Positions 5,202 to 38,734 of a DNA stretch of 64,000 nt are shown piece after piece. The DNA comes from Candidatus Dojkabacteria bacterium (GTDB lineage: Bacteria > Patescibacteriota > Dojkabacteria > J137), in the NCBI GenBank assembly GCA_030950485.1, contig JAUZRK010000001.1, positions 39,998 through 103,997 on the forward strand. Reading direction: 5' to 3'. Both the position numbers and the translations under genes were made by a program. Positions within the stretch are counted from its first letter, which is position 1. Each line of letters begins with the position of its first letter. The notes under the pieces were generated by a model. It searched no databases, was not told where the DNA came from, and worked only from the letters and a program-made list of their open reading frames with translations.

Positions 5202-5600
5202 TTAACGTTTTGAGAATTGTTCTGCTTTTCTCGCTTTTCTTAAACCTGGTTTCTTTCTTTCTACCATTCTAGAATCTCTAGTTAGATATCCTGCCTTTTT
5301 AATAGCATCTTTAGTCTCAGGGCTAACTTTTACTATAGCTCTAGCTAGCGCGTGTCTAACAGCCTCTGCTTGAGCAGAATGACCACTGCCAGATACTCTA
5401 ACTGTATAATAAAAATCTTCTTTCTTTAAACCAGCAACTTCAAAAACATTATTAATTTTGTATTCATAGTTTGCCTTTGGGAAATATTCTGCAATAGATT
5501 TCTCATTTACAACATTTGCACCTTTCTCTTCGAACAACCTTAATGTAGCTGAAGCTGTTTTTCTTCTTCCAATTGTATATGTATACTTTTTATCAGCCAT
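5202..5600 (-). CDS. rpsI: 30S ribosomal protein S9
   Basis: Strong S9 similarity (..GGGHSAQAEAVRHALARAI.. C-terminal ..RKARKAEQFSKR). Confidence 0.9.
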   Translation of the reverse strand: MADKKYTYTIGRRKTASATLRLFEEKGANVVNEKSIAEYFPKANYEYKINNVFEVAGLKKEDFYYTVRVSGSGHSAQAEAVRHALARAIVKVSPETKDAIKKAGYLTRDSRMVERKKPGLRKARKAEQFSKR

Positions 5601-5615
5601 ATATTATATCTTGAA

Positions 5616-6059
5616 TTAAATTTTAAATTCTTTAGCATTTATTACTACTGGTTTATTGGCTTCATGATTATGAATAGCCTCAGTATAAACCTTTAGATTT
5701 GTAATCAACATTCTACCTTTCTTATTCTTAGGTAACATTCCTTTTACAGCATTTTCTATTACAAAATTAGGATCTTTTGCAAACTTCGTATCCAAGTCTT
5801 GAACAGATAATCCACTTGGGTATCCAGAATATTTTTTATAAAACTTAGAGAAACCTCTCTTTGCAGTAAAATCAATTTTAGAACTATTTATTACTACAAC
5901 TTTCTTCATAGGATTAAGATAATCTCTTACAAGAGGATCTGTTTTACCTAATAAAAGCTCTGCAGCTATAGTAGCTACTCTACCACTTCTCATTCCAGCA
6001 GCATCTATTAAAAACCACTCTTCTTTTATATCTTTTTGACTTATACTACTTGTTTTCAT
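5616..6059 (-). CDS. rplM: 50S ribosomal protein L13
   Basis: L13 hallmark N-terminus (..KEEWFLIDAAGMRSGRVATIAAELLLGK..). Confidence 0.9.
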   Translation of the reverse strand: MKTSSISQKDIKEEWFLIDAAGMRSGRVATIAAELLLGKTDPLVRDYLNPMKKVVVINSSKIDFTAKRGFSKFYKKYSGYPSGLSVQDLDTKFAKDPNFVIENAVKGMLPKNKKGRMLITNLKVYTEAIHNHEANKPVVINAKEFKI

Positions 6060-9625: not shown

Positions 9626-11452
9626 TTATCTAGTAACCTGATAGCTCTGCACTCTTTCCAATAACTCTTTTGCTTCATTATTATTAGTAAAATGAGCCCT
9701 TACTGGCGTTAGCAATTTATTTAAATACTTAATTACTGCAAGTTTTAGATCAAGTGGGAATAATACACCTTTCCTAAATGATTCCTCTAGTTCTTGATAA
9801 GTATTGTATGAGACATCTCCTCCAAATTTATCTTCTCTTTCTACTTTAAATACTCCATCCTCTAATAGTGATTCTTGTAATTTAAGATGGTGTGCTTCAA
9901 AAATAATTTGTTTACAGTATCCAAGAATTGGATTATCAGATATTTCTTCAGGCGGACAATAAGCTGCCATTATCTTTCTTTTTACATCTTCTTCTGAATC
10001 AGTCATAAAGATAGCAGTATCAGGCTTTGACTTAGACATTTTTTGAGAAATCTTAGCTGCCTCTGGGTCTTCATGGTACCTAACTTCTATCTCTGGTAAA
10101 TTATCCTCTTTATTTCTACCTACAAACTTAAAATCTACACCAAATTTAGTAACCGAATCATTCTCAATCAAACTAATAAGTTCTAATCTTCCTTTCCCAA
10201 TAGAAGAAACATTAAACTGAATTCCCTCTTCATTGCCTTGACCAAATTCAATATGATACTGAGATGAACCTAGTCTTAATTCTTGCCTCCCTTCTTTTAG
10301 CTTTATTAGCTTAATACTCTTTTGCATTGGCTTTTGCAACCCTTGAAGCATTCCATGACTAACAACAACAGGCTTCCAGTAGCCTACACTTGGACCAACT
10401 TCTCTTGCAAGCATGTTAACTTTTCTCTGATCCATTCCAAGCTCTGTAACTTGACACTTCATGACATGAAAAATATCAGTAGTCTGCATACAAGGATAGA
10501 TAATTTGAGCTCCCGAAAGATCATCATCTTCAGATCTACCCATTATCTCTGTTGTTCTTAGAATTCGTTTTAGTGTTGCAGATTTAGAAACCTTCATAAC
10601 TATTTCCCAATACTTAGGATCTTTAATTACATCACTAGTCCAAATAAATTCAGTATTATCTAAATCCATCCCTGATGCTTTCCAGATTTCAATAAAATAT
10701 TTACCGACATCTTTTATTTTTTCAAGATCTCCTCCCATCTTATTGTTTAAATATCCAAACCAATCTGCAACATACATCCTAAATGTAAAGCCAGCCTTAA
10801 TCATTTTATTCGTGTTTATAGCTCTAATGATTCCCTGAGCAATATGCATTTGTCCAGAAGGCTCAAATCCATCATAAGTATATAGATCTTCGCCAGAGGT
10901 CAAAATTCCAGCTAATTGATCTTCACCTATAACTTCTCCTCCAGTTTCTTCAGATCCTACAGACATAATTAAGTCTATTCTCTCTTGTAATTTAGGTGTA
11001 ATCTCAATCTCTTGGTACTGATTAAAAGCTCCAATATAGAAACTTTCTTTAGTTGCATCTAATATACTTTTACCTATTGCATCATCAATACTCATTTCTA
11101 ATTCACTTCCTTCAATCACTCTAATCCTAGTATGATCTTCACTTGTACCTATTTCATCTTCAGCTAATATCATTCCTTCAGAATCAACTCCCCTTAATGG
11201 TCTCTTTTCTAATTTAATTTCTTTCCCTTCTTTAAATAAGAATCCAGGAACTACCTCGCCAACACCTAAAAATGGTACTAGATCACCTGGTTTAAAATTA
11301 GAAGCACCTGTAACAATCTGAAATTCTTTATCTCCATCAGTTATTTGAACAACTAGCAATCTATCTGCATTTTCATGCTTCTCTACTGATAAAACTTTTG
11401 CGATTTTTATTTTTTCTAAGAGTTCTGTAATTCTTTCTTTTCTAAATTTCAT
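9626..11452 (-). CDS. tyrS: Tyrosine--tRNA ligase, archaeal/eukaryotic type, with an N-terminal Trbp111/EMAP-like tRNA-binding domain
   Basis: Class I motifs FEPSGQMHIAQG (HIGH-like) and KMSKS. Core resembles eukaryotic/archaeal TyrRS (MYVADWFGYLNNK.., ..SGAQIIYPCMQTTDIFHVMKCQVTELGMDQRKVNMLARE). The first roughly 110 aa (KIKIAKVLSVEKHENADRLLVVQITDGDKEFQIVTGASNF) match the Trbp111/CsaA/MetRS-C tRNA-binding fold. Confidence 0.8.
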   Translation of the reverse strand: MKFRKERITELLEKIKIAKVLSVEKHENADRLLVVQITDGDKEFQIVTGASNFKPGDLVPFLGVGEVVPGFLFKEGKEIKLEKRPLRGVDSEGMILAEDEIGTSEDHTRIRVIEGSELEMSIDDAIGKSILDATKESFYIGAFNQYQEIEITPKLQERIDLIMSVGSEETGGEVIGEDQLAGILTSGEDLYTYDGFEPSGQMHIAQGIIRAINTNKMIKAGFTFRMYVADWFGYLNNKMGGDLEKIKDVGKYFIEIWKASGMDLDNTEFIWTSDVIKDPKYWEIVMKVSKSATLKRILRTTEIMGRSEDDDLSGAQIIYPCMQTTDIFHVMKCQVTELGMDQRKVNMLAREVGPSVGYWKPVVVSHGMLQGLQKPMQKSIKLIKLKEGRQELRLGSSQYHIEFGQGNEEGIQFNVSSIGKGRLELISLIENDSVTKFGVDFKFVGRNKEDNLPEIEVRYHEDPEAAKISQKMSKSKPDTAIFMTDSEEDVKRKIMAAYCPPEEISDNPILGYCKQIIFEAHHLKLQESLLEDGVFKVEREDKFGGDVSYNTYQELEESFRKGVLFPLDLKLAVIKYLNKLLTPVRAHFTNNNEAKELLERVQSYQVTR

Positions 11453-20152: not shown

Positions 20153-20833
20153 ATGAGGCGATTGCTTACATATACATTAATATTGTTGTTTGGAACACTA
20201 CTAGCCCTATGGTCACCATGGTTAAGGTGGAATATTTCAATAGCAGATCTTTTAGGTGCTGAGAAACCAGAAAGTATTGCAGGACTTCAGGTCTTCTCAT
20301 TAGCAGGTGAGCTTAATATTTATGTTGATGATGAATTCCAAGGTACAGTTACCACAGATAATTCACCGTATTTTATAAATAATATAACGCCTGGAGAACG
20401 AAGAATTAGAGTAGAAAGAAAATCAGATACTAATGGTGCTTATTGGAATTTCAATAGATTAATTAGTTTTGAAGAAGGAAATGATGTTGTTATCTCATAT
20501 AATATAGGTCCGAGTGAAGAATTCTCAACTGGAAATTTTATATATACTACGAAATCTTCAGAAGATGAAAAAAATAGAGCTAAACTAAATTTCAAACTAA
20601 ATGTAGAAGATTCAATAATTAGCATTGATAACATTACAAAAGTTGTTGATGGCTATACAGTTAGCGAATATGTAAATCTGGATAAACAGTATTCTGTAAA
20701 AGTAAGTAAGTCCGGATATGAAGATCTAGAATTTACCTTACTACCAAGTGAAAGTGAACTTAGATCAGAACTCGAAGGCCATGATCTAAATGTAGAAGTA
20801 AATTTAATGTTGCAACCAGTATTAGTCGAATAA
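20153..20833 (+). CDS. Secreted/membrane-anchored hypothetical protein (N-terminal TM), translationally coupled to the downstream 1043-aa gene
   Basis: N-terminal hydrophobic helix (LLTYTLILLFGTLLALW). Stop TAA overlaps the ATG of the next gene (TAATGA). Confidence 0.4.
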   Translation: MRRLLTYTLILLFGTLLALWSPWLRWNISIADLLGAEKPESIAGLQVFSLAGELNIYVDDEFQGTVTTDNSPYFINNITPGERRIRVERKSDTNGAYWNFNRLISFEEGNDVVISYNIGPSEEFSTGNFIYTTKSSEDEKNRAKLNFKLNVEDSIISIDNITKVVDGYTVSEYVNLDKQYSVKVSKSGYEDLEFTLLPSESELRSELEGHDLNVEVNLMLQPVLVE

Positions 20834-23800
20834 TGAGAGTACCAGACCAATTTAAACTAAAAAACACTATTAAATATCCAACCTCAATTATAGTCGGTGG
20901 TATTTCTAAATTAGGGCTTGAAGTAGCTGAATCTCTAGTTGAACAAGGTGGATATGTAATCATAATTGATACAGTAAACGAAGAAAGTATCGCTAGATTA
21001 GGGACTTTCAGTAGAAATGATCTAGTAAGTCTTTTAGATTACTCTTCAATTCCGCACTTAGAGGAAGATATAAGGAGATTAGATTATGTATTCTACTTCA
21101 ATCACGAAATAGTAGACTTTAAAAATAAAATATCTACTCAAGAATTTCTAACTTTTTCGAACTATCTTGATGCAGTTTTAACACTAGCTACTAAATTTGA
21201 AGCTAAGTTTCTTTTAACTTCTTCTATAAAAGTAAATCAAGTAATACTATCGGAAGCTGAATTAAGTTTAGGACTTGGTTCATCTGATAAAGTTACCCAT
21301 ATTTATACTGAAATGGAAACACAGAAGTATGCAGAAGGATTAGTAATGGAATATGGAGAGAAAGCTGAGTTAGATGTAAGAATAATAAGATTGGGTGAGA
21401 TAATTGGAGATGAGATGAATTTCAGAAATCTTACATCCTTTACTGAATTCATTTTAAATGCAGTTAGAGGTAAGGCACTTGAATTAAAAAAAGATGGGTT
21501 AGAAAATGAATGGTACATACATCTTTTAGATGCAGCATACGCTTTAATTAAGGCACAATTTGGATCTAAAACCTCTGCTAGAATATTTTCAGCTAGCTAT
21601 GATACGTCATTCTCTCATTTAGCTATAGCTTATAAGATACAAGAATATTCAGATGGGAAAACAGAAATAAGATTTATAAGAGAAAATGACAATCTACCAT
21701 CACTAAAACTTTATAAACCTGCTAAAAGCTTATCAGATATAGGTTGGGTTCCTAAAATCTCTTTTGATAAAGCGATAAGAGAATCGGTTGCTTCAGCAAA
21801 GATTTTTTTAGCGGAAAAGAATATTGAAAAAATAAAGAGAAACTCTAACGCTTCTTTAAGTTCTAAACTAATGAGTTTTCTTAGCCTAGCTAATGATGAT
21901 TCAGAAAATAGACTAAATGAAGATATTTTAGATACTATGGCTAGGGAGCATGATAATGATAAGAAAGTGAAAAAAAATCGATTAGTATTAGGACATAGAG
22001 ACTTAAAAAAGAGAAGGAGAAGACCAAAAACTAGAAAAGAGAAATTTCAAGATATTTTCTGGGCGGGATTTACACGATTTGCAAATATTTTTACTTTCTT
22101 TAGGAATAAATCGCCACTAGAAATAGGTGCGTTATTTGTATCAGTAACACTTTTAATATTTGTATATTTCTTTGCATTTGCTCCATTTATATATTTAACA
22201 AAGAACTATACTACTGCAATTCAAGATACAGAAGAACTGTTAGATTTTGCTAATGAAAAGAATTATGAACAACTAACTTCAAAAACTGAAAAAATAAAGA
22301 TAGCATTAGAAGACAATATTGATCTTTTGTCTATGTATGAATTCAGCTCAAAATTTATTACACTTGAGGATGAATTAGCTGATATTCAAGAAATAAATGA
22401 TATATATGCTCTTGCAATTAGTGGAATAATTGATGTTTCAGAAAATATAGACCCATTAAATGTATATCTTAATGAATTCTATAATAATACAGTTTTAAGA
22501 TCAGGTAATGAAAGCTATCTTTCAATTAATGATAACGGGGTGGATTTCTCAGCTGAACTATCCAAAGTAGAAGGCAATAGAATTTATTTAGTATCAGGAT
22601 TAGAAAAGCTGGATAAAGCAATTGAGAGATTAAATAAGAGAGACTATACTCATCTTCCAGAATATATAGCTACAAGGATAGTTGATATGAACTTAAAACT
22701 TTCAGAACTTAAGTCATCTTTAGAATCTAGTTATTATGAAAGTTATTTAGCAGAGCTTTTAGGGGCAACGAATCAGAAGACTCATTTAATCTTAGTTCTT
22801 GATAATACTCGTCTTTCACCTATCGGTGGAGATATATCCGCATTCGCCTTAGTTACATTTAAAGGAGGTAGCGTTGTAGATATTGTAGTTAGACCTGTAA
22901 CTGATAGTTTAGAAATACCTACTTTTAGCAATGAGGAAATAGCTTACTTAAATACTAATAGATTTAGCTTAATAAATGCTACAGATATTGAATTGAATGA
23001 TTTTTCAAGCCTTACAGATTTTAGAGAATTTGCTTTTGAAATGCGTTCTGTTTTTGAGAATGAATATGAAAGAGATATTGATGGAGTAATTACTTTAAAT
23101 TTAAATTCTTTATCTGAGTTATTATCAGTCAATCAAATTGGTCCTGTAAATGTATCGGGATTAGACTTTAATGAATCAAATTTCTTAAACTCTTTAAATA
23201 ACGCTCAAGTTCAAAATGAAAATGTTGAGGTTAGAAGAGATTTAATTGCACAAGTATTAGCTACATTCCTTTACAATGAGTTTAATTCCTACTCTAATAC
23301 GTATTCAGACTTGGTAAATAAAATTACAAGTCAGTTATTATTAGACAACATATACTTAGACTTTGATACATCAAATATACAAGATGAATTAGATAAAAAT
23401 TATATTAGCTTCGCTGAAGATACTGATAGTTATATAAAGGTAACTACTTTAATGAATGATCCTAATAATGTAAATATTTCAAAGTTTTCTGATATTAATA
23501 TTGCTCTTGAGACAAGTATTTCAAATGAATTATCACTAAGTCATAAAGCAACTGTTAACTTTACGAATCTAGGAAATGGTCAAGAACTGGCTGTATGTTT
23601 ATCAAGAAATACAGATCCAGATTCTGTAGTTGTTAGCGGACTGACTTCAGATTCGCTTAGATATGTTATTAATGAAGGTGAAGATGATGTTTGTATAGTG
23701 ATGAGAATACTCTCTGAGAATTCAGTTACTATTACATGGAAAGAGTTCTCTAAATTTGAAGTTAATGGAGGAGAGACTATAATACAGCTTGGAGTAGCTA

Positions 23801-23964
23801 GAGTAAAAGGGGCTAGAACTACTCTAGATCATACAATTAAGTTGGGAAACAACTTACAAATAAGTAATATTGAGTCTGATATATCTTTCGTTCCGGGATC
23901 AACTGAGGTTGGCTATAATAAGCAAATACTGTCTGATCAAATCACTACTCTCAGCATACGTTAA
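20833..23964 (+). CDS. Large multi-domain protein (1043 aa): N-terminal NAD(P)-binding Rossmann (epimerase/SDR-like) domain, central TM segment, large C-terminal domain of unknown function
   Basis: N-terminal IIVGGISKLGLEVAESLVEQGGYVIIID (Gx2Gx2G-like). Hydrophobic stretch PLEIGALFVSVTLLIFVYFFAFAPFIYL near residue 430. About 600-aa C-terminal region with no recognisable domain. Confidence 0.45.
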   Translation: MRVPDQFKLKNTIKYPTSIIVGGISKLGLEVAESLVEQGGYVIIIDTVNEESIARLGTFSRNDLVSLLDYSSIPHLEEDIRRLDYVFYFNHEIVDFKNKISTQEFLTFSNYLDAVLTLATKFEAKFLLTSSIKVNQVILSEAELSLGLGSSDKVTHIYTEMETQKYAEGLVMEYGEKAELDVRIIRLGEIIGDEMNFRNLTSFTEFILNAVRGKALELKKDGLENEWYIHLLDAAYALIKAQFGSKTSARIFSASYDTSFSHLAIAYKIQEYSDGKTEIRFIRENDNLPSLKLYKPAKSLSDIGWVPKISFDKAIRESVASAKIFLAEKNIEKIKRNSNASLSSKLMSFLSLANDDSENRLNEDILDTMAREHDNDKKVKKNRLVLGHRDLKKRRRRPKTRKEKFQDIFWAGFTRFANIFTFFRNKSPLEIGALFVSVTLLIFVYFFAFAPFIYLTKNYTTAIQDTEELLDFANEKNYEQLTSKTEKIKIALEDNIDLLSMYEFSSKFITLEDELADIQEINDIYALAISGIIDVSENIDPLNVYLNEFYNNTVLRSGNESYLSINDNGVDFSAELSKVEGNRIYLVSGLEKLDKAIERLNKRDYTHLPEYIATRIVDMNLKLSELKSSLESSYYESYLAELLGATNQKTHLILVLDNTRLSPIGGDISAFALVTFKGGSVVDIVVRPVTDSLEIPTFSNEEIAYLNTNRFSLINATDIELNDFSSLTDFREFAFEMRSVFENEYERDIDGVITLNLNSLSELLSVNQIGPVNVSGLDFNESNFLNSLNNAQVQNENVEVRRDLIAQVLATFLYNEFNSYSNTYSDLVNKITSQLLLDNIYLDFDTSNIQDELDKNYISFAEDTDSYIKVTTLMNDPNNVNISKFSDINIALETSISNELSLSHKATVNFTNLGNGQELAVCLSRNTDPDSVVVSGLTSDSLRYVINEGEDDVCIVMRILSENSVTITWKEFSKFEVNGGETIIQLGVARVKGARTTLDHTIKLGNNLQISNIESDISFVPGSTEVGYNKQILSDQITTLSIR

Positions 23965-26760: not shown

Positions 26761-26791
26761 CAGAGTAATTCTAGCTTAAGAGAGCTTAATT

Positions 26792-27274
26792 TTAAAGCTC
26801 AACTACTTCATCTAGTTCAATTGCCATTTCTTCTTCAGTTCTATAGACAAATTCCCCTGGAGGTTGATGAGTTATGTACATTATTCCAGTATAGTCTCTA
26901 AATATATCTGGAAGATAATTACTTATGATCGCTCCTGGTGGTCTTTGTGACATACTGATACAATTTTCTGTTCTAAATATAGCGAAGTGCCCTAATTTTT
27001 CAGGGTCAATTTTTCCACCTTCTATATAAATATAAGAAACGCTTTATGGTTGGAGCGTTGGTGAAGCTTGCGAAGAATCAGCATGATAAATCTCTTGGGT
27101 TTCCAGCCATTTTATAGAGTTAGCTTGAGCCTTAGCTAGGCTACTTCCTTCTAGATGCTCAACAAGACCTGGTTCATACCCAGTCCCGGTTTCTCGAGCC
27201 CTTTCTTCAGAATAGTTTTGGTAAGTAAATTCTTCAGCCACCAGAGATTTTAGCGCGAATAATGTAATAAGCAA
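26792..27274 (-). pseudogene. Hypothetical gene interrupted by a single in-frame TAA (27044-27046); GC content above local background
   Basis: The 76-aa ORF (27044..27274) and the following 80 codons are in the same frame (..SPTLQP*SVSYIYIEGGKIDPEKLGHFAIFRTENCISMSQRPPGAIIS..EVVEL*). Family not recognised. Confidence 0.3.
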
Positions 27275-27401
27275 AGTTAAATTGCTATTGTATTACAACT
27301 CTGATATTGATATTTTCAAGAGGGTCGTGACATTATTAATGATGCATATATATCATTTAATCAATTTACTAACCACTTGCCCCTCATCACTAATCTCTAG
27401 C

Positions 27402-28910
27402 CTAAAACTCTATCTTCATTGCTTCCTTCATCTCATCCGCTATGCCTCTTGCTATCTTGCTTACTTTCTTACTGCCCTCTACAGCTTTTTCTACTAACTC
27501 AGCTTTCTTTCCTTCTGCCTCTCTTCTCTTTTCCCTAATCGGAGTTAAAACCTCGTTCATAGCAGCAAATAGTTTTTCTTTAACTTCAACGTCTCCAACT
27601 TTCCCAGCTTCGTATCTAGCTTTTAAGTCTGCTACTTCCTCTTTATTTGAATTAAACAAATCATGATAAGTAAATGCTACATTTCCTTCTACAGTGCCTT
27701 TATCAGTTGCATGAATTCTATTTGGATCTGTATAAACACTCATAATCTTTTTCTTCAGTTCTTCTTCTGAATCAGATAGATAAATTCCATTATTTAAGCT
27801 CTTTCCCATCTTTGCATTTCCATCAATACCTGGAACATTTTTAGGCACACCAAAATGTGCTTTTGGTTGTCCAAAAACCTCTTTTTTATACGTATTGTTG
27901 AATTTTCTAGCTATCTCCCTACAATCTTCTACCATTGGCGCCTGATCTTTACCAACAGGCACTAAATCTGCATTAACACAAAGAATGTCTGCAGCTTGAT
28001 GAGTTGGATAAATAAAGAAACCTAACGGAGTAGAATCTTCCATATTATTTTGTTTAATCTCAGTTTTCAATGTTGGGTTATGCATTAGTTGTTGAACTGA
28101 AACAAAATTCGAAAGATACATAAATATTTCATGTGTCTCTGGAACCTCACTTTGGATATAAACAGTTGATTTATCAAAATCTAATCCAGATGCATAGTAA
28201 TCACATAAAAGTTCTCCAATGCTTTGTTTTACTTTCTCAGGATTGTCTCGATTATCTGAAAGAGCATGAATATTTGCTATCAGAATAAAAGTCTCATATT
28301 CTTCCTGAAACTTCACTCGATTCATTAATGATCCGAATAAATGACCGATGTGTAATTTACCAGTTGGTCTATCTCCAGTAAGTATTCTTTTTTTTCTTGT
28401 ATCATTTAACACATTCTGTCTTCTTTCATTTGGAACCATTATGTCTACTCTCTCAAATATTGGAATTAGTTTTTCTAGATCAGTCCTTTTAATTTCTAAA
28501 GCTAATTCTGAGCTTGTGCTTCCACAAATGACTTTATTCATTTCAAAGAATGATTCATCGATAAGAATTTTATTAATTTTATTTTCTCCTTGTAGAAGAT
28601 CTAGAACCAAAGGTGATGCAAGTCCAGGTTCAAATCCTATAGATTTTAGCTCCTCATCAGATGCAAACGATACCCTGCTTGTTCCCAAATATTTTTTTAA
28701 TTTCTTAGAATCAATATTTTTATCATCTCTTCTTAGAATTCCAACATATTTATCTCCGCCATATCTAAATATTAAAGTTGATAAACCTTCTGAATATTTT
28801 ATCCCTAAAGATTTAACAATCTCGTCTATACTTAATGAACTAACCTTATGAAAGCTATGTTTAATATTTCTTTTTTCTAATAAATCTTTTATAAATTCAA
28901 AATGTTTCAT
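27402..28910 (-). CDS. trpS: Tryptophan--tRNA ligase with N-terminal YbaK/ProX-like aminoacyl-tRNA deacylase domain
   Basis: C-terminal TrpRS: ..TGDRPTGKLHIGHLFGSL.. (HIGH), ..VPVGKDQAPMVEDCREIARKFN.., ..KMGKS... N-terminal roughly 160 aa: ..STLIFRYGGDKYVGILRRDDKNIDSKKLKKYLGTSRVSFASDEELKSIGFEPGLASPLV.., a YbaK-like pattern. Confidence 0.8.
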   Translation of the reverse strand: MKHFEFIKDLLEKRNIKHSFHKVSSLSIDEIVKSLGIKYSEGLSTLIFRYGGDKYVGILRRDDKNIDSKKLKKYLGTSRVSFASDEELKSIGFEPGLASPLVLDLLQGENKINKILIDESFFEMNKVICGSTSSELALEIKRTDLEKLIPIFERVDIMVPNERRQNVLNDTRKKRILTGDRPTGKLHIGHLFGSLMNRVKFQEEYETFILIANIHALSDNRDNPEKVKQSIGELLCDYYASGLDFDKSTVYIQSEVPETHEIFMYLSNFVSVQQLMHNPTLKTEIKQNNMEDSTPLGFFIYPTHQAADILCVNADLVPVGKDQAPMVEDCREIARKFNNTYKKEVFGQPKAHFGVPKNVPGIDGNAKMGKSLNNGIYLSDSEEELKKKIMSVYTDPNRIHATDKGTVEGNVAFTYHDLFNSNKEEVADLKARYEAGKVGDVEVKEKLFAAMNEVLTPIREKRREAEGKKAELVEKAVEGSKKVSKIARGIADEMKEAMKIEF

Positions 28911-28989
28911 TGTTTATATTTTCGTAATTATTTTAATTATACACTTTTTAAGTAGTTACTCATTTCCAGATATAAAACTACCTAAAATA

Positions 28990-29014
28990 ACAAAAATCCC
29001 GCATTTGCGGGATT
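28990..29014 (-). terminator. Rho-independent terminator for the minus-strand gene ending at 29106 (AATCCCGCA..TGCGGGATT, U-tract on minus strand)
   Basis: 9-bp stem with an A-run at 28992-28996 on the plus strand (T-run on the minus strand). Confidence 0.6.
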
Positions 29015-29105: not shown

Positions 29106-30157
29106 TTAAATGTGTTGATTTTGCTTAGCTGATAAAAGTAATTTAATTGTGTAGATCAAACCAATTAGTATTAGCGTGACTATACCAAGATATATAGTTA
29201 CATCTAATGCCCCAAATTCATCGATAAGACTACCTAATGGGATAGCGAGAATGACATATGGCATTCCTTTTATAATTGAAAAAGTAGACAATGCAGTGGC
29301 TCTATATTTTGATTCAATACTATCGTTTATATCTTTTGAATTTATAGCATTAATTGATGGTTCAAGCATAAATCTTATAGTTAGCAATACAATTGTTAAT
29401 ATAACTGAGTTGATATTTGTAAATAGTAAGCTCAATACGTATATAATTGAAAGAATACTGAAAAGTTTATTTGGTTCCATCTTAATTGTGGCTTTTGAAT
29501 ATATCCATGCGCCAAATGCGCTCGCAAATGTCATAGCTGAGAATAAAATTCCAAGCATTTCTTCAGGTATTCCTAATGCCATTGGATAAGCTGCATTCAA
29601 AACATTATCTAGTACATTCAGAACTCAAAATATGATTAAAAAATATACAAGCTTAATAAGTGGAATATTATGTTTAATTTGTTTTATACCTTCTCTGTTT
29701 TGTTTTATATAATTTCTTAGAGAAAATTTTTCAGAATCAATTGGAGGCTCAGTTATTAAAATTAGTATTAAAATTCCTCCTACTATAATAAATGTACCTG
29801 TAAAAAAATACGGTAATCCCTCATCAATTTTATATAGAAACCCACCAATTATTCCTGATACTCCTAGTAATAAGAGCTTATTTCTCTCTACTAGTGCCAA
29901 ATACTTATCATAAACATTTTCAATACCAAGAGATTTATGAGAATCATAGATTAACGCCTCAGCTGTTCCAGAATATAATGCAGCTCCTATTACTATTAGT
30001 AGTAAGGAGATAAAAGGTGATAGTATTCCGTACTAAATCCCATCAGAATATTTCCTAAACCAAATAGAAAAAAAGCAACGATTAAAGTACTCTTCTTTCC
30101 AAACAGATCGGAAAATGCCCCAGTGGGGATCTCAATTAATAATCCAAATTAAAACAT
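29106..30157 (-). pseudogene. MFS transporter, fragmented by multiple stops/frameshifts
   Basis: Pieces 29106..29600, 29625..29900 and 29900..30157 each read as MFS TM segments. The N-terminal piece carries MFS motif A (GAFSDLFGKKSTL) but starts MF* with an immediate stop. Confidence 0.6.
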
Positions 30158-30915: not shown

Positions 30916-31617
30916 TCATATAAACTCCCTTTTTTTACTATTATATGTATTAACTACAGCACTTCCAACAACTGCAATATCAGCATGTTGTGATAACGCT
31001 TTAATATGTTCAGATTTGGAAATTCCATAACCTACAGCAATTTCAGTTTTAATATATTTTTTTACTCTATTAATATGACTAGATAATTCTGGGTCTAATT
31101 CACTTTTTTCACCAGTCGTTCCTTTTCTACTTGATAAATAAATTAAATCTTTTGCGTACTTTGCATTTTTCTTTATCCTCTCATCAGTACTTGTCGGAGC
31201 AAGAAGCCTAATTGGGTTAATATTATATTTCTGGCGTAATTCAATAAAATGTTCTTTATCTTCCATTTCAATTGAAATATCTGGAATTATTAATCCATAC
31301 GCACCAGCCTCAGACGAATCCTTAATAAATTTCTCGAGACTATAGGCGTTTAAAATATTGAAGTAAGTCATAAATATTAGCTTTGCTTTTACTTTAGAGC
31401 TCATTTCTTTCATTAGTTTAAAAGCATCTTCTACTCTTGTACCATTTTCAGGTGCAATTCTATTAGCTTCCATTATTGTCGGTTCGTCTCCTAATGGGTC
31501 AGAAAAAGGGATCTGAAGTTCGATATAGCTAACTCCAACTTCGTCCATAGCCTCAATTAATTTCCTTGATTCTTCTAAAGTTGGGTATCCAACTACAATG
31601 TGTGTCATTAGTTTCAT
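30916..31617 (-). CDS. trpA: Tryptophan synthase alpha subunit (N-terminally short; possibly decaying)
   Basis: ..YIELQIPFSDPLGDEPTIMEANRIA.. (TrpA active-site region) and C-terminal ..IAVGYGISKSEHIKAL..VVGSAVV... 233 aa, about 20 aa shorter at the N-terminus than typical TrpA. Its partner trpB is a pseudogene. Confidence 0.7.
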   Translation of the reverse strand: MKLMTHIVVGYPTLEESRKLIEAMDEVGVSYIELQIPFSDPLGDEPTIMEANRIAPENGTRVEDAFKLMKEMSSKVKAKLIFMTYFNILNAYSLEKFIKDSSEAGAYGLIIPDISIEMEDKEHFIELRQKYNINPIRLLAPTSTDERIKKNAKYAKDLIYLSSRKGTTGEKSELDPELSSHINRVKKYIKTEIAVGYGISKSEHIKALSQHADIAVVGSAVVNTYNSKKREFI

Positions 31618-31830: not shown

Positions 31831-32238
31831 TCACTCATTCTCTCCGTCAGCTATGCGGTCCTCCCTTCCGCGAAAGGAGGGTTGGGAGGGATGCTGCAAC
31901 AACCACAGCTTAATTCTCTCCACAACTCCCCCAACATTACTCATAATTTCATAATTCCAAAATCTTACAACTCGATATCCCATCCCATTTAACACTCTAG
32001 TTCTTTCAACATCATATTCTCTTCTACTCAAATGAACCTCTCCATCTACTTCGATAACTAACTTATACTTTGCAATATAGAAATCAACTATATATCTACC
32101 AATTACTTTCTGTCTTAGAACTCTAACACCTAATTTATCTCGTCTGATTTCTTGCCATAATATGTTTTCAGACTTTGCCATATTAGTTCTATTCTCCCTA
32201 GCAAATTTCTTTATCCTTCTCATAAAAAAAATTAGCAT
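31831..32238 (-). CDS. DUF559 / Vsr-like (restriction-endonuclease-fold) domain protein, inserted between trpB and trpA
   Basis: ..ILWQEIRRDKLGVRVLRQKVIGRYIVDFYIAKYKLVIEVDGEVHLSRREYDVERTRVLNGMGYRVVRFWNYEI.. matches the DUF559 consensus. Its C-terminal 20 codons are encoded by an inverted partial copy of the flanking repeat (31831..31900). Confidence 0.65.
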   Translation of the reverse strand: MLIFFMRRIKKFARENRTNMAKSENILWQEIRRDKLGVRVLRQKVIGRYIVDFYIAKYKLVIEVDGEVHLSRREYDVERTRVLNGMGYRVVRFWNYEIMSNVGGVVERIKLWLLQHPSQPSFRGREDRIADGENE

Positions 32239-32526: not shown

Positions 32527-33841
32527 TTAGAAAAATTCACTTTTACTTTTTACTTTTGCCTTCAAATAATCCCTAAACCCCTCATCCCCAAACTCCTCAG
32601 TCAGAATAAATAAGTCTTTATCTCCACGTCCAGATAAATTAATCACAATTACATCTTCCTTCTTAGTCTTAGGAACAAATTTAATTGCGTATGCGACAGC
32701 GTGCAATGATTCTAAAGTACCTATTATTCCTTCAGTTGCTGCTAATGTTTTAAAAGCTTCTTTTACTTTATTATCAGTAGCGTGTTCATACTTCACTCTA
32801 CCCTGCTCGTATAGCATTGCATGTTGAGGGCCGATACCTGCGTAATCTAGGCCTGCAGAAATACTGTGAGTAGGTTGAACTTGGCCGTCAGTATCCTGTA
32901 GAAAATATGATTTATAAACCTTCTACAACACCAATTTTTGGATCATTATTAAGTCTAGATGCATGATCACCTATTTCTTTAACTCCTTTCCCCCCTGCCT
33001 CAACTGCTATTAAATTAACTTCTTTATCATCTAGAAAAGTATTAAATATTCCGATTGAGTTACTTCCACCTCCAACACAAGCAATAATATAACTTGGTTT
33101 AGTTTCTCCATACTTTGTTATTTGCTCCTTAACTTCTAACCCTATAATAGATTGAAAACCTCTAACCATTGATGGATAGGGATGCGGTCCTAATGCAGAT
33201 CCTAGTAGATAATAGCTATCGTCGACATTTGCAATCCAATCTTGAATTGCAGCTGTAACCGCGTCTTTTAATCGTCTTGTTCCATGCTTTATCGGAACTA
33301 CTGTCGCTCCAAGGCTTTCCATCCAAAAAACATTCGGCCTTTGTCTTTTATAATCAACTTCTCCCATATAGACAATACATTCCATTCCAAATTTTGCCGC
33401 AACTGTTGCAGTTGCAAGTCCATGTTGACCAGCTCGGGTTTCGGCAATCAATCTTTTCTTCCCCATTCTTTTCGCCAGAAGGGCTTGACCTAAGCAGTGA
33501 TTAATTTTATGTGCTCCAGTATGGTTCAATCCTTCATTTTTTATATAAACTTTTCCTCCTCCTAATTTCTCAGTTAAGTTTTTAGCATAATATAAGGGTG
33601 TAGGTCTTCCTCAGTAATTTTTATATAAATCATTTAAAAATTCTGGATCATTTTTAGCAGCTATATAAGCATTTTCTAATTCTTCTAAAGCTGGTATTAA
33701 CATCTCAGGAACATACGCGCCACCATAATTACCAAAGAAGCCTTTATTATCTGAATCATATTGTGTCTTAATGAATACTTGCTTTACCATGTAGTTCGTC
33801 ATAATAAGTAAATTCTGGAGATAAAAGTTCATTAATCTCAT
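32527..33841 (-). pseudogene. trpB: Tryptophan synthase beta subunit, disrupted (in-frame TGA near 33593, frameshift near 32905-32915)
   Basis: Three fragments: 33611..33841 (..[14 protein letters not shown]..), 32912..33529 (..[41 protein letters not shown]..) and 32527..32817 (..NLSGRGDKD..). Reading through, ..[16 protein letters not shown].. shows a stop inside conserved sequence, and ..VVEGL*/..VYKSYFLQD.. needs a 1-nt shift. Confidence 0.8.
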
Positions 33842-34604: not shown

Positions 34605-36329
34605 ATGAAGAAAAGAAAATTTTTAATAGGAATACTTTTAATTTTAACGATAGGGTTAGTAGGTGCATCACTATATGTAGGATTAAATCTACAAAATAGT
34701 GAAGGTCCTGAAGATAGTAGTGCAAGTACTTCTTGTACAGATACTTCTCCTGCATGTGTAGGGAAATCTAATGGTGATGACGCGGGATGTCAGGGTGGAG
34801 GGAGTGCTTTTAGATGTAAATGTGTAGCCGTTGCTTCTAGTGACCCTAACTGTAGTTCAGGAACTCTAAAAGTTAACTGTAGTTATGCTGATTCGAGCTG
34901 CGGTACTCCAACTAATAAATGTCCAAATGGTTCAAATTATTCAGGAGGTTGCGGTCAAGATGGATGCGCTTCTAATCAAAAGCCTCTTTTTGCTTGTGAT
35001 GCTAGTACAGAAAATACCTCTAAGACTGGTTGTCAAAGATCTCAAGATTGTGAAAATACAGTAGATCCTTGTAATGCTAATAGCGGTAGAGCTAATGCGT
35101 GTCAATGTTCTAGTAGCGGACAGTGTAGTTCAGGTTTTTGTAATTCAAGTAATAAGTGTGCAACAAAAACTAGTATAGGTGGCTTCACTTGCCCTAATCC
35201 TCCAAATGCCAGTGCAGTAATTTGTGCAGTATATGACTGCCCTAATGGAGATACTAATGGAGATGGCGAGTGTTTAGCTAGTGATGAAGGATCTAGCGAA
35301 GCTTTTTATACTTCAAACTGTCCAAGTAGCCCTCCTTCTGGTTGTGGTCAAATTGATTATTATACAGCTGCTAGCGGAAGTAGACCTGATTTTGGCTCTT
35401 ATTGTGGTTATTCATTCTTAAGCTTTAGCGCATGTAGTGGTGGAGTATCAGATCCTGTTTGCGGTAATGGTAAAAAGGAAGCTGGTGAAGAATGCGATGA
35501 TGGTAACAATAACAATAATGATTCATGTAATAATAATTGTAAGACAGTTGTACAACCTGTTTGCGGTGATGGGAAAATGGATGCAGGAGAAACTTGTGAT
35601 GATGGGAATAAAATAGATGGTGACGGCTGCGATTCTAATTGTCAAATCTCACCAAAATGCGGCGATGGCAATATGGATACTGGAGAGACTTGTGATGATG
35701 GGAATAATATTGATGGTGATGGGTGCGATAGTACTTGTCAAATTGAAGTAGATCCAACTTGCGGAGATGGGAATATGGATGCTGGTGAAACTTGTGATGA
35801 CGGTAACAATATAAATGGTGATGGGTGTGACTCAACTTGTCAGCTTGAAGAAAACCAATGTGGTGATTCTTGTACTACAAATTCTGAATGCCCTAATAAT
35901 CATTCTTGTATTTCAGGAACTTGTACTTTAAATGGTTGTACAGATAGTAACTGTGTTAATGGCTGTGCTCCAGTTTGTGGCGGACCTTGTACTTCTAATC
36001 TTGATTGTCCAAATGATCATAGCTGTGATTTAAATACTAATAAATGTATCTTAAGTGAATGTGCTAATGATCCTACTTGTATTAATAATGGCTGTCTTCC
36101 AAAGACTGCTCTTTTCTCTTCTGATAGCGGAATTCTAGCTGAAGAAAACAGACTTTTACTAAATGGTGTAGTTTTAATTATTAGCGCACTTTTAATTTAT
36201 AGATTAAAAGCTTTTAGTAAAACAGCAAAGTTTATTTCTGATGCAAATATTAGATTTACGTTTACAGGGAATGAAGATAGAAAAAGAAAAGAGTTTGAGA
36301 AAAAAATGAGTAGAAAAACTAGTAAATAA
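34605..36329 (+). CDS. Cysteine-rich repeat surface protein (574 aa): N-terminal signal/anchor, tandem Cys-rich repeats, conserved C-terminal module with CLPKTA + TM + basic tail
   Basis: N-terminal MKKRKFLIGILLILTIGLVGASLYVGLNLQNSEGPEDS. Four repeats of CG(N/D)G..(E/D)xGE.CDDGN..(N/D)GD(G/S)C(N/D)..C (Myxococcus-type cysteine-rich repeat pattern). C-terminal ..ECANDPTCINNGCLPKTALFSSD.., a 20-aa hydrophobic helix, then RLKAFSK. Confidence 0.6.
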   Translation: MKKRKFLIGILLILTIGLVGASLYVGLNLQNSEGPEDSSASTSCTDTSPACVGKSNGDDAGCQGGGSAFRCKCVAVASSDPNCSSGTLKVNCSYADSSCGTPTNKCPNGSNYSGGCGQDGCASNQKPLFACDASTENTSKTGCQRSQDCENTVDPCNANSGRANACQCSSSGQCSSGFCNSSNKCATKTSIGGFTCPNPPNASAVICAVYDCPNGDTNGDGECLASDEGSSEAFYTSNCPSSPPSGCGQIDYYTAASGSRPDFGSYCGYSFLSFSACSGGVSDPVCGNGKKEAGEECDDGNNNNNDSCNNNCKTVVQPVCGDGKMDAGETCDDGNKIDGDGCDSNCQISPKCGDGNMDTGETCDDGNNIDGDGCDSTCQIEVDPTCGDGNMDAGETCDDGNNINGDGCDSTCQLEENQCGDSCTTNSECPNNHSCISGTCTLNGCTDSNCVNGCAPVCGGPCTSNLDCPNDHSCDLNTNKCILSECANDPTCINNGCLPKTALFSSDSGILAEENRLLLNGVVLIISALLIYRLKAFSKTAKFISDANIRFTFTGNEDRKRKEFEKKMSRKTSK

Positions 36330-36406
36330 ATACTATTTAAATTGTAAATTAATTGTAATCATTCTCCTAAATTGATAGTCTGTATTGAGACGTTCACTAA
36401 CGACAT

Positions 36407-38734
36407 ATGAAGAAAAAAAGTAGAAAAATTGTAATTGCAATATTATTAATATTAACTCTTGGTTTAACAGGAGTTTCTGTTTATGTAGGACTTAATCTAC
36501 AAACTAGCGAAGCCCCAGAAGATTCAGCAGCAGGATGTTGGTGTACGGGATCAAATGAATGCCCTAGTGGTTACAGCTGGCAAGGCTCTGGCTCTGGCTG
36601 GTGTAGTGCTCCATTAGGCTGCTGTAATGCTGGAGGTGGCGGTTCGGCTGGAGGTGGAAGTACTGGAGGAGGGACACCTTCTACAGGAAGTTCTGACGGT
36701 TCTGCTTGTACATTCGGTAATAACTCTACTTGCGGTAACGTTTGTTGTTCATGTGGTAAGTGTGGGGGTGTTACAAAGACTTGTAATCAGATATGTGGAT
36801 CTTCAAGTGCAGGTGGAAGTAATCAATGTGAGACAGATACAGGAAGACCTGTAAATTGTGCTTGTAATAATGGTTCGCAGTGTTCATCTGGGAATTGTTC
36901 TGGTGGTACTTGTAAAAATGCTATTGACCCTTGTTCTGAGACTTCTGGAAGACCAAATGGTTGCTCTTGCAGTTCAGGATCTCAATGTTCAACGGATAAT
37001 TGCTCTGGAGGATCTTGTAAAACAACAGACAATACTGGAGGTGGTTCAACAGGTGGAGGACTAGGAGTTGGTGATGCTTGTACATTAGGAGGAGCTAGCT
37101 GTCCAACAGGATCGGCTTGTACACCGAATCAAAATGGAAACAATGTATGTAATGCTATTGATGGTTCAGGATTAGTAGATGGAACAAACCTAACTTACAA
37201 CCAGTGCGTTGCAAGTGGTTCTACTTGCGGTGGTAATTATATTGCATTTAACTGTCCTAATGGATTTGGAGACCAATGTTTTGAAAATGAATTAAGAACT
37301 ACTTCTTTATCTGCTGCTACTTCGCATATGAATGGTTGCGGGCAAGTTGACACAGTATTCCAAGGTGGTTCTTGTAATGATCGTTTATGCGGTGGATTTG
37401 TTATTTCAAAAACAAACTGTGGAGGAGGCGGTGGTGGTGGAACTGTAGACCCTGCTGGACCAGTTTGTGGTAATGGAGTAAAAGAAAGTGGTGAGCAATG
37501 TGATGATGGTAATACAAATAATAACGATAGCTGTAATAATAGTTGTAAAACTGTAGTTCAGCCAGTATGTGGTAATGGTCTTATGGAAAGCGGTGAAGCT
37601 TGTGATGACGGTAACAATAATAATGCTGATAGTTGTAATAATAATTGTCAGATTGTAGACGCAATTAGCTGTGGAGATGGCGTTATGGAAGGTGATGAGC
37701 AATGCGATGACGGTAATAACGTAAACAATGATGGGTGTAGTGCAACTTGTACTTTAGAGCAGTTTCAATGCGGGGAGCCATGTTCAGTAGATGCTCAGTG
37801 TCCAAATGGCCATTCTTGTCTAGATGGAATATGTACATTAGATACTTGTACAGCACAAACATGTACAAATGGTTGCCCTAACTCTTGTGGTAATGGTGTT
37901 TTAGAAACAGGAGAACAGTGTGATGATGGGAATAATACAAATGGAGATGGATGTAGCGCTACTTGTACACTAGAGGCAATAGATCCTCTTTGTGGTGACG
38001 GTAATCTTGACCCTGGAGAAGAATGCGATAATGGTACAGGCAATGGAGCTGTTTGTACTCCAACATATGGAAATAATTGTCAGTTCTGTTCTCTTAACTG
38101 TTCTCAGTTAGAAATTGAAGGACCTAGCTGTGGTAATGGAACAGTTGAAAGTATGGAGCAATGTGATCCCTTAGCAACACCTAATGGCTGCGCAGCATCT
38201 TCAACATGTACTAGCTCTTGTATTTGTGAACCTGTGACTGGTCCACAATGTGGTGATACCTGTGGATCAAATCTAGATTGTCCAAATAATCATTCATGTA
38301 TTTCTGGTAAATGTACACTTAATGGATGTACCGATGGAAACTGTGTTAATGGTTGTTTCCCACTATGTGGAGGACCATGTACCTCAAATAAAGACTGTCC
38401 AAATGATCACACTTGTAATTTAATAACTAATCGTTGTGTATTAAGTGAATGTGCAAATGATCCAACATGTATTAATAATGGATGCTTGCCAAAGACTGCA
38501 ATATTCTCATCTGATGATGGAGTATTCTCTGAAAGTAATAGAAATTTAACTTTTGGGTTAATGATTATGGCTACTGCTCTATTGCTTTATAAGTTTAATT
38601 TCTTTACAAAGATAGGTTTAAATCTTACTGGAAGTAAATATAGATTTGTATTCTCTCCTTTAGATAATGATCTAAAACAAAAAGGATTTGAATATAAAGT
38701 AGAAAAAGACTTAGAAGATAAAGCTAAAGATTAA
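36407..38734 (+). CDS. Cysteine-rich repeat surface protein paralog (775 aa) with the same N-terminal anchor and C-terminal CLPKTA + TM module
   Basis: MKKKSRKIVIAILLILTLGLTGVSVYVGLNLQTSEAPEDS. Gly/Cys-rich N-region. Six or more CG(N/D)G..GE.CD(D/N)GN..(N/D)GDGC repeats. C-terminal ..ECANDPTCINNGCLPKTAIFSSDDG.. + TM + ..KFNFFTK... Confidence 0.6.
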   Translation: MKKKSRKIVIAILLILTLGLTGVSVYVGLNLQTSEAPEDSAAGCWCTGSNECPSGYSWQGSGSGWCSAPLGCCNAGGGGSAGGGSTGGGTPSTGSSDGSACTFGNNSTCGNVCCSCGKCGGVTKTCNQICGSSSAGGSNQCETDTGRPVNCACNNGSQCSSGNCSGGTCKNAIDPCSETSGRPNGCSCSSGSQCSTDNCSGGSCKTTDNTGGGSTGGGLGVGDACTLGGASCPTGSACTPNQNGNNVCNAIDGSGLVDGTNLTYNQCVASGSTCGGNYIAFNCPNGFGDQCFENELRTTSLSAATSHMNGCGQVDTVFQGGSCNDRLCGGFVISKTNCGGGGGGGTVDPAGPVCGNGVKESGEQCDDGNTNNNDSCNNSCKTVVQPVCGNGLMESGEACDDGNNNNADSCNNNCQIVDAISCGDGVMEGDEQCDDGNNVNNDGCSATCTLEQFQCGEPCSVDAQCPNGHSCLDGICTLDTCTAQTCTNGCPNSCGNGVLETGEQCDDGNNTNGDGCSATCTLEAIDPLCGDGNLDPGEECDNGTGNGAVCTPTYGNNCQFCSLNCSQLEIEGPSCGNGTVESMEQCDPLATPNGCAASSTCTSSCICEPVTGPQCGDTCGSNLDCPNNHSCISGKCTLNGCTDGNCVNGCFPLCGGPCTSNKDCPNDHTCNLITNRCVLSECANDPTCINNGCLPKTAIFSSDDGVFSESNRNLTFGLMIMATALLLYKFNFFTKIGLNLTGSKYRFVFSPLDNDLKQKGFEYKVEKDLEDKAKD

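Follow-up and report, generated by a model that had tools for sequence, protein, structure and literature searches.

The trpS gene on the minus strand of a 64-kb stretch of DNA from a Candidatus Dojkabacteria bacterium (contig JAUZRK010000001.1; the whole stretch is hereafter called the window) encodes a tryptophanyl-tRNA synthetase (TrpRS) fused at its N-terminus to a domain of the INS/YbaK superfamily of tRNA-editing proteins. The domain lacks the lysine that characterizes this superfamily, and it belongs to what, on sequence grounds, is a distinct, sizeable and previously undescribed branch of lysine-less domains associated with class Ic synthetases. In this branch, loss of the lysine (position 44) covaries with gain of a basic residue on the neighboring β-strand (Arg60 here). 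The most likely role of the domain is proofreading of tRNA(Trp), with binding of the aminoacylated CCA end retained, a reading to which the sequence and model evidence lends a probability of roughly 0.4; a non-catalytic role in handling the tRNA is nearly as likely.

Domain identity and fold

The 502-aa product is encoded by one uninterrupted frame with a single terminal stop. Pfam places PF04073 (tRNA_edit) at residues 27-148 (E-value 6.8e-18, 65.4 bits against a gathering score of 25.5, profile positions 6-123 of 123) and the class Ic synthetase family PF00579 at residues 171-455 (E-value 2.5e-63). The TrpRS part is complete, scoring 245.2 bits against a cutoff of 176.75 with the NCBIfam model TIGR00233 (trpS) over model positions 2-326 of 328, and its HIGH (TGKLHIGH) and KMSKS (KMGKS) motifs are invariant across 26 relatives. 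AlphaFold models the N-domain with a mean predicted local distance difference test (pLDDT) score of 95 when folded alone and about 84-94 within the full-length model, in which a low-confidence linker separates it from the TrpRS core (Table 1). In a Foldseek search of the PDB, all 37 matches at E-values of 1e-3 or below are YbaK, ProX or ProRS-INS structures, with template modeling (TM) scores of 0.63-0.83; 1dbu was matched at 2.6e-11 and 1wdv with TM scores of 0.76/0.83 and a root-mean-square deviation of 2.3 Å, and 9bu5 stands last among the significant matches. Profile comparison against the PDB ranked APE2540 (1WDV) at 5.5e-18, ProRS-INS at 5e-13, YbaK at 4e-12, the ProXp-ala structure 5vxb at 4.6e-7 (behind 1wdv, ProRS-INS, YbaK and 3op6) and ProXp-x at 5e-5. 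As for homology to AlaX or the AlaRS editing domain, Pfam gives only PF04073 in this region and all fold matches are INS-type. On these profile and model grounds, the assignment of the N-domain to the INS/YbaK fold and superfamily is secure.

A preliminary description of this gene, made from the sequence alone, had proposed a YbaK/ProX-type Cys/Ala-tRNA(Pro) deacylase joined to a complete TrpRS, and had called for a PF04073 scan, a check of the catalytic lysine and a survey of the fusion among related genomes. Its architecture stands: the superfamily domain and the complete synthetase share one frame, the scan is well above threshold, and all the motifs that it quoted are present. Its wider suggestion, quality control of a different tRNA in cis or a moonlighting role, is taken up in refined form below. 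The specific deacylase identity is not supported. Lack of the catalytic lysine had been named beforehand as an outcome that would refute it, and Ser44 occupies that position; the YbaK equivalog model TIGR00011 scores 26.3 bits against a cutoff of 153.25; similarity to ProXp-ala is weak by both profile and fold; and relatives carry a prolyl-tRNA synthetase (ProRS) with an INS domain of its own. Nor is this a ProRS INS domain, being N-terminal to a class Ic TrpRS rather than between motifs 2 and 3 of a class II ProRS. The domain therefore has the profile, fold and GXXXP loop of the superfamily but not its lysine, and because both the lysine and the YbaK equivalog score are lacking, it ought not to be classed as either YbaK or ProXp-ala.

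Loss of the conserved lysine and covariation with position 60

The lysine is described as strictly conserved in INS members, where it steers the aminoacylated A76 into the pocket via the C75-A76 phosphate (PMC10164551). Three independent residue-level alignments, to ProRS-INS ('AKTMIF'), Haemophilus influenzae YbaK ('FKTLLV') and Escherichia coli YbaK ('YKTLLV'), set Ser44 ('GLSTLIF') opposite this residue, as does the profile alignment to APE2540 ('VKTLIV'). Column 44 is Ser, Ala or Gly in 25 of 26 aligned fusions and Lys in the remaining one (P0026); over all class-Ic-fused domains, 39 of 41 have a residue other than Lys at this position.

Column statistics were taken from the top 150 HMMER relatives and 25 close fusions, aligned to the N-domain profile. 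Free-standing proteins of about 155 aa have Lys at position 44, a hydrophobic residue at position 60 and the motifs 'KTL', '(L/V)PGD' and 'GxVxP'; domains on class Ic cores have S, A, G or P at position 44, R or K at position 60 and the motif '(R/K)R(D/A/G)D'. An Arg or Lys at position 60 is present in 59 of 66 domains without Lys44, compared with 1 of 106 domains with Lys or Arg at position 44 (Fisher p = 6e-37, not corrected for phylogeny). The pair 44-60 is the strongest covarying pair of the whole domain (MIp 0.61; mutual information with average product correction, phylogeny not corrected). Positions 62, 42, 97 and 100 covary with column 44 as well, and both 97 and 100 belong to the GXXXP loop.

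In the AlphaFold models, strands 42-50 and 54-61 are separated by a three-residue loop, which implies a hairpin register of i+j=104 with residues 44 and 60 as cross-strand neighbors on the same face. This register gives the highest mean covariation, and the pair 49-55 supports it independently. In ProXp-ala, nuclear magnetic resonance showed that K45A perturbs G63, which corresponds to position 62 here (PMC10164551), indicating that the neighboring strand lies beside the lysine. Neighbor-joining ordering groups the lysine-less domains in one main cluster. Within this cluster sits the lysine-keeping fusion P0026, which has Ala60 and whose neighbors have A44/K60 and A44/R60; judged from these sequences, it appears to be a within-clade instance of the 44/60 swap.

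Positions T45, G96, D118 and G130 are equally conserved in the lysine-less branch and in canonical members, whereas P100 (58% versus 98%) and G132 (61% versus 98%) are relaxed in the former. Because the first four residues are kept and column 44 covaries with positions 97 and 100 of the GXXXP loop, the pocket appears remodeled, not decayed.

Distribution and domain architectures

When the N-domain profile was run exhaustively against 1.84 billion representatives with HMMER, 4,941 relatives were recovered. Word-indexed searches gave one weak free-standing match with the single N-domain and two with a 26-sequence profile, neither of which recovered the known fusions; a protein scan of GTDB genomes yielded five loci, one of them fused. 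As to the distribution raised in the preliminary description, the fusion recurs: of the top 120 matches, a further 25 clusters at 90% identity have both domains, as do about a dozen more among 50%-identity representatives, so that N-terminal TrpRS fusions amount to more than 35 clusters in all, with organism labels that include Dojkabacteria and 'Patescibacteria group'. In view of this recurrence, the fusion is not an accident of assembly.

Association with class Ic enzymes takes several other forms. In P0187 the domain is at the C-terminus of TrpRS and has Pro at position 44, and in P0126 a lysine-less RRDD domain (Ser at position 44) is joined to a bacterial-type tyrosyl-tRNA synthetase (TyrRS; TIGR00234, 291 bits) with an S4 domain; the same P0126 sequence occurs in two independent samples, and the tree places its domain next to the clade of the window domain. 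P0173 is an archaeal-type TyrRS with a C-terminal INS-like domain that keeps Lys at position 44, and P0122 has two tandem copies (Thr and Ser at position 44) with a truncated class Ic core. In P0131, a 744-aa protein on a 2.9-kb NCBI metagenome contig that was seen once, a PheRS-type B3/4 editing domain (PF03483, E-value 4.9e-25) precedes an INS-like domain with Gly at position 44 and a TrpRS. TrpRS and TyrRS were the only partners found for the lysine-less branch. Two lysine-keeping INS-like domains, one at the N-terminus of GatB (P0257, 631 aa) and one at the C-terminus of an S-adenosylmethionine methyltransferase (P0256, 447 aa), are further undescribed multi-domain architectures of the superfamily.

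The domain also exists apart from the synthetase. Beside P0031, whose core is 78% identical to that of the window TrpRS, a PF04073 gene of 168 aa stops 6 nt short of trpS, and the stand-alone proteins P0123 and P0124 end in '...VPNLNRQ(N/D)IN', exactly at the linker. Since split and stand-alone forms exist, the domain can presumably work as a separate polypeptide, like trans-editing factors. It is also absent from some close relatives: the loci L009 (no domain) and L007 (fused) share the order UvrA-PEGA-trpS-MreB-MATCAP, but L009 encodes a 342-aa TrpRS with an upstream gap of 324 nt and no INS-like domain within 5 kb; in L002, none was found within 8 kb of trpS. Mean pairwise identity among relatives is 0.37 for the N-domain versus 0.72 for the core, and the N-domain is intact and motif-bearing in relatives down to 21% identity. 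Taken together, the sequences suggest that the lysine-less branch is functionally coupled to TrpRS and TyrRS, and the remodeled pocket looks to be under selection.

Fusion-bearing relatives encode an INS-bearing ProRS. The 792-kb Dojkabacteria contig L007, on which the fusion P0022 lies, has a 585-aa bacterial-type ProRS 6 kb upstream (at 602-2359), the INS domain of which keeps its lysine ('QTTKTIIY ... VRGD'), and an INS-bearing ProRS fragment is present in L001, another Dojkabacteria genome with the fusion. Editing of tRNA(Pro) by the fused domain would thus not be needed in these relatives. No ProRS was found in the window itself.

Gene model and start site

The public record for this protein (P0003, a 'Candidatus Dojkabacteria bacterium' TrpRS in NCBI) is 345 aa long, matches with 100% identity over 69% of the query and begins at the internal Met158, without the N-terminal domain; no gene call of the full 502-aa length is on record. 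The sequence evidence supports the ATG at 28910 over Met158 as the start, because a terminator-like hairpin and an extended -10-like TGTATAAT box lie upstream of it, Met1 is conserved among relatives, the Met158 column is T or S in most relatives, and the N-domain is kept as an intact open reading frame (ORF) in relatives. Hairpin and box are consensus matches in a window of about 31% G+C. The alternative, that translation yields the 345-aa TrpRS alone and that the 157 codons ahead of it are either not translated or a remnant in decay, would agree with the length of P0003, with the lack of a longer gene call and with a purine-rich GAGAGAG stretch upstream of Met158. It is nevertheless highly improbable in view of the upstream signals, the presence of Met158 in this sequence only, the confident domain model and the intact, motif-bearing N-domain in more than 35 diverged relatives. 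A related Dojkabacteria TrpRS called at 380 aa (P0038) looks likewise shortened, and a full-length fusion was shown by tblastn in L001. Public annotation thus shortens the gene and makes the editing-like domain invisible in the protein records of some such genomes. No second TrpRS was found within the 64-kb window.

Table 1. Features of the trpS fusion gene and its upstream region (window coordinates)
Feature	Position	Strand	Basis or remark
INS-like domain + TrpRS fusion gene, 502 aa	27402..28910	minus	ORF list, Pfam and NCBIfam matches; stop codon 27402-27404
N-terminal INS/YbaK-fold domain, residues 1-165	28416..28910	minus	PF04073 match, residues 27-148 = 28467-28832
Ser44 codon (TCA), conserved-lysine position (YbaK K46 / INS K279 / ProXp-ala K45)	28779..28781	minus	alignments and direct reading
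R60-R61-D62-D63 motif, neighboring β-strand	28722..28733	minus	nearly invariant in fusions
G96-L-A-S-P100, INS superfamily GXXXP loop, intact here	28611..28625	minus	G96 invariant
Flexible linker, about residues 166-172	28395..28415	minus	pLDDT <50 at residues 167-171; follows conserved 'PNxxRQ' tail
Bacterial-type TrpRS core, residues 173-502, complete	27405..28394	minus	TIGR00233
HIGH motif 'TGKLHIGH' (residues 183-190)	28341-28364	minus	
KMSKS motif 'KMGKS' (residues 367-371)	27798-27812	minus	
Terminator-like hairpin of preceding gene	28995-29014	minus	pattern scan and reading; consensus match only
Extended -10-like 'TGTATAAT' box upstream of ATG 28910	28936-28943	minus	consensus match only

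Proposed function and alternatives

TrpRS and TyrRS, the class Ic synthetases, are textbook examples of enzymes that reach fidelity without editing, and the statement in the preliminary description that TrpRS is not known to need it holds as background. Catalysis in the INS family involves no side-chain base and is achieved chiefly through positioning, backbone atoms and the A76 2'-OH (PMC10164551); therefore, a relocated positive charge could preserve activity. In the mechanism proposed here, Arg60 would occupy the place of the lysine in space and take over from it as the phosphate-steering charge, the tRNA 3' end would bind there, and the domain would still accept the aminoacylated CCA end. 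Tethered to TrpRS, or encoded beside trpS, it would provide a post-transfer proofreading site for class Ic products, at which smaller or wrong-isomer aminoacyl-tRNA(Trp) would be hydrolyzed and the bulky cognate Trp-tRNA(Trp) excluded, in the manner of a double sieve. A scavenging, genome-reduced cell of the Candidate Phyla Radiation (CPR) with scarce Trp would plausibly face high ratios of noncognate to cognate amino acid. Proofreading of this kind is supported by the recurrence of the class Ic link in independent arrangements (P0187, P0126, P0173, P0131 and the N-terminal TrpRS fusions). A bolder version, less likely than not, is that the lysine-less domain remains an active hydrolase, its phosphate-steering charge having moved to Arg60 on the adjacent strand. 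It would then constitute the first dedicated class Ic proofreading module, ridding tRNA(Trp) and tRNA(Tyr) of smaller, near-cognate or D-amino acids in CPR bacteria that depend on scavenged amino acids in unbalanced supply.

Several observations weigh against proofreading. We know of no editing need in either TrpRS or TyrRS, and the close syntenic relatives L009 and L002 do without the domain, whose sequence also diverges much faster than that of the core. Conservation of P100 and G132 is relaxed in the lysine-less branch. The covariation of positions 44 and 60, uncorrected for phylogeny, could stem from a structural salt bridge (with D118 or D62, for instance) rather than from substrate binding, and the spatial equivalence of R60 and K44 is suggested by two lines of evidence, the DSSP register of the models and that same covariation. 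The INS lysine is strictly conserved, and its mutation 'dramatically impairs deacylation' in all members tested (PMC10164551; PMC11286415).

A competing view is that hydrolysis was lost with the lysine and that the domain was kept as a helper, binding the tRNA(Trp) acceptor end or bracing the TrpRS catalytic domain and so improving charging. This is a serious possibility, although short of even odds. The invariant lysine is gone, and K-to-A substitution abolishes editing in all members tested (PMC10164551); the relaxation of P100 and G132 points the same way, and the newly conserved Arg-rich RRDD motif could contact RNA. Sister CPR TrpRS proteins (P0041, P0065 and P0084, with cores 72-76% identical) carry a C-terminal PF01588 domain instead, and the TyrRS of the window (9626-11452) carries one at its N-terminus, so a non-catalytic helper role fits. 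In Plasmodium, moreover, TrpRS needs an AlaX-like domain that is judged non-editing for aminoacylation (PMC3240968; PMC3680381). A generic tRNA binder, however, requires neither restoration of a charge at the cross-strand neighbor of the lost lysine nor conserved pocket glycines or D118, and a helper role is harder to reconcile with a domain that also occurs as a separate gene beside trpS, that is found with a second editing-type domain (B3/4) in P0131, and without which close relatives charge tRNA(Trp).

Two other activities seem improbable, to about the same degree. The domain could act in chiral proofreading, removing D-Trp and D-Tyr from tRNA(Trp) and tRNA(Tyr) and replacing or supplementing D-aminoacyl-tRNA deacylase (DTD) in reduced CPR genomes. 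The specific attachment of the lysine-less branch to TrpRS and TyrRS would suit this, and a small residue in place of Lys could enlarge or reshape the pocket, but to our knowledge the Gly-cisPro chiral selectivity of DTD has no counterpart in the INS fold. D-Tyr-tRNA(Tyr) and D-Trp-tRNA(Trp) are classic DTD substrates (PMC1807948), whereas the INS-family pockets characterized so far take small L-amino acids (PMC11295145). Alternatively, the domain might edit some other tRNA in trans in the ordinary way (Ala- or Cys-tRNA(Pro), or Ser/Thr-tRNAs) and be tethered to TrpRS merely for co-expression. Membership in the INS superfamily, the fusion of ProXp-ala to ProRS in protists (PMC11295145) and the relatives fused to GatB or a methyltransferase, both lysine-keeping, lend this some credit; set against it are the INS-bearing ProRS already present in fusion-bearing Dojkabacteria, with the lysine in place where the full gene was read (L007), the TIGR00011 score far below cutoff, the weak similarity to ProXp-ala and the restriction of the lysine-less branch to TrpRS and TyrRS.

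Comparison with known systems

Canonical INS/YbaK members share with the window domain the fold, an above-threshold PF04073 match, the GXXXP loop and the conserved D118, G130 and T45; the window domain differs in lacking the strictly conserved Lys, in having an Arg on the neighboring strand and in falling below the YbaK equivalog cutoff. According to a 2024 review, INS members are single-domain proteins except for the ProRS INS domain, the ProXp-ala-ProRS fusions of protists and a C-terminal domain in plants (PMC11295145), whereas the window domain is fused to a class I synthetase. The branch thus departs from two rules of the superfamily, namely the strictly conserved lysine and the single-domain state of members outside ProRS-linked cases. 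The fold and superfamily are already known; what is new is the signature of the subfamily (Lys absent, Arg60 and RRDD present) and its partnership with class Ic enzymes. A literature search found no paper linking YbaK with CPR, Patescibacteria or Dojkabacteria.

Among solved structures, the best profile match over the whole domain is the free-standing, putative ProX-type protein APE2540 of Aeropyrum pernix, which differs in keeping the canonical 'KTL ... IPGD' motifs and in being a single-domain protein; no functional literature on it was found in the literature search. The ProXp-ala-ProRS proteins of trypanosomatids, apicomplexans and other protists likewise have an INS domain linked to the N-terminus of a synthetase, through a disordered linker, with the domain serving as a cis or trans editing module (PMC11286415; PMC11295145). 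There, however, the partner is the class II ProRS that makes the mischarged substrate, and Lys and GXXXP are kept, whereas in the window the partner is a class Ic enzyme without a known misacylation problem and the Lys is gone. ProXp-7 is eukaryotic, MCP3-like and retains the Lys (PMC11286415).

Cytosolic TrpRS of Plasmodium falciparum also carries an N-terminal domain from a tRNA-editing family, one that is judged not to edit and yet is required for aminoacylation (PMC3240968; PMC3680381). That domain is AlaX rather than INS/YbaK, on a TrpRS of eukaryotic type in another lineage, and the likeness is one of analogy, not homology. Domains of the Trbp111/EMAPII type (PF01588) occupy an equivalent appended position on CPR TrpRS and TyrRS (P0041, P0065, P0084 and the window TyrRS), but have an unrelated oligonucleotide/oligosaccharide-binding fold, bind tRNA non-catalytically and have no aminoacyl-adenosine pocket. 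A conceptual precedent for relocation of a lysine is offered by the WNK kinases, in which the 'invariant' lysine is missing from its usual strand, a basic residue on an adjacent strand substitutes for it, and the enzyme is active despite a dead-looking motif; fold and chemistry are entirely different.

Should the domain be active, it would bring aromatic amino-acid editing to genome-reduced bacteria and provide a natural 'residue-hopping' experiment on the INS mechanism; the active-hydrolase claim, if true, would overturn both the view that TrpRS and TyrRS never edit and the view that the INS lysine is indispensable. Should it be inactive, it would show cleanly, in a bacterium, how an editing fold can become a tRNA-handling module, in parallel with Plasmodium TrpRS.

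Other features of the window

The 640 nt between the trpS stop and the gatB start (26761-27401) are somewhat higher in G+C and hold no ORF of more than 76 aa; a structured RNA was sought in this gap, with no Rfam match near threshold and a folding z-score of -0.8, which does not set it apart from shuffled sequence. Immediately upstream of gatB lies the end of a small ORF, about 54 aa long ('MSQRPPGAIISNYLPDIF...'). The INS-like-GatB fusion P0257 prompted consideration of a functional link between trpS and the adjacent gatB, which was rejected, the adjacency not being conserved in L006, L007 and L009. Directly upstream of trpS, at 29106-29900 (minus strand), a transporter of the major facilitator superfamily (MFS) type is apparently split into ORFs at 29106-29600, with a weak, sub-threshold MFS_1 match, and 29625-29900, with none; this may be another disrupted gene.

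Of the tryptophan synthase genes, trpA (30916-31617) is intact and adjacent to trpB (32527-33790, minus strand), which appears disrupted by an in-frame TGA (33611-33613) within the conserved motif 'NY*GRPTPLY' and by a frame break near 32914, leaving pieces that match trpB residues 75-276 and 311-383. The disruption could reflect a pseudogene, sequencing errors in a metagenome-assembled genome or read-through of TGA, a codon that ends 4 of the 63 ORFs in the window. A 135-aa DUF559 ORF (31831-32238, minus strand; related to Vsr-like endonucleases) separates trpA from what is left of trpB. No adjacency of trpA or trpB to trpS was found in relatives. In L006, a 1.1-Mb Dojkabacteria contig with the fusion P0009, a Trp_repressor-family gene (PF01371, 87 aa, 5498-5761, plus strand) lies 2.2 kb upstream of the fused trpS.

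The TyrRS of the window (9626-11452, minus strand) is a 608-aa protein of archaeal type (NF006330, 323 bits against a cutoff of 220) with the Trbp111-like PF01588 domain at residues 15-107, and it shows weak similarity to a 'TyrS-associated TapR' model. Large proteins are encoded at 34605-38734 and 20833-23964 (both plus strand): two neighboring ones, of 574 and 775 aa, with DUF4215 repeats, and, further upstream, a 1,043-aa DUF4012 protein; the DUF4215 and DUF4012 proteins are probably cell-surface proteins typical of CPR genomes.

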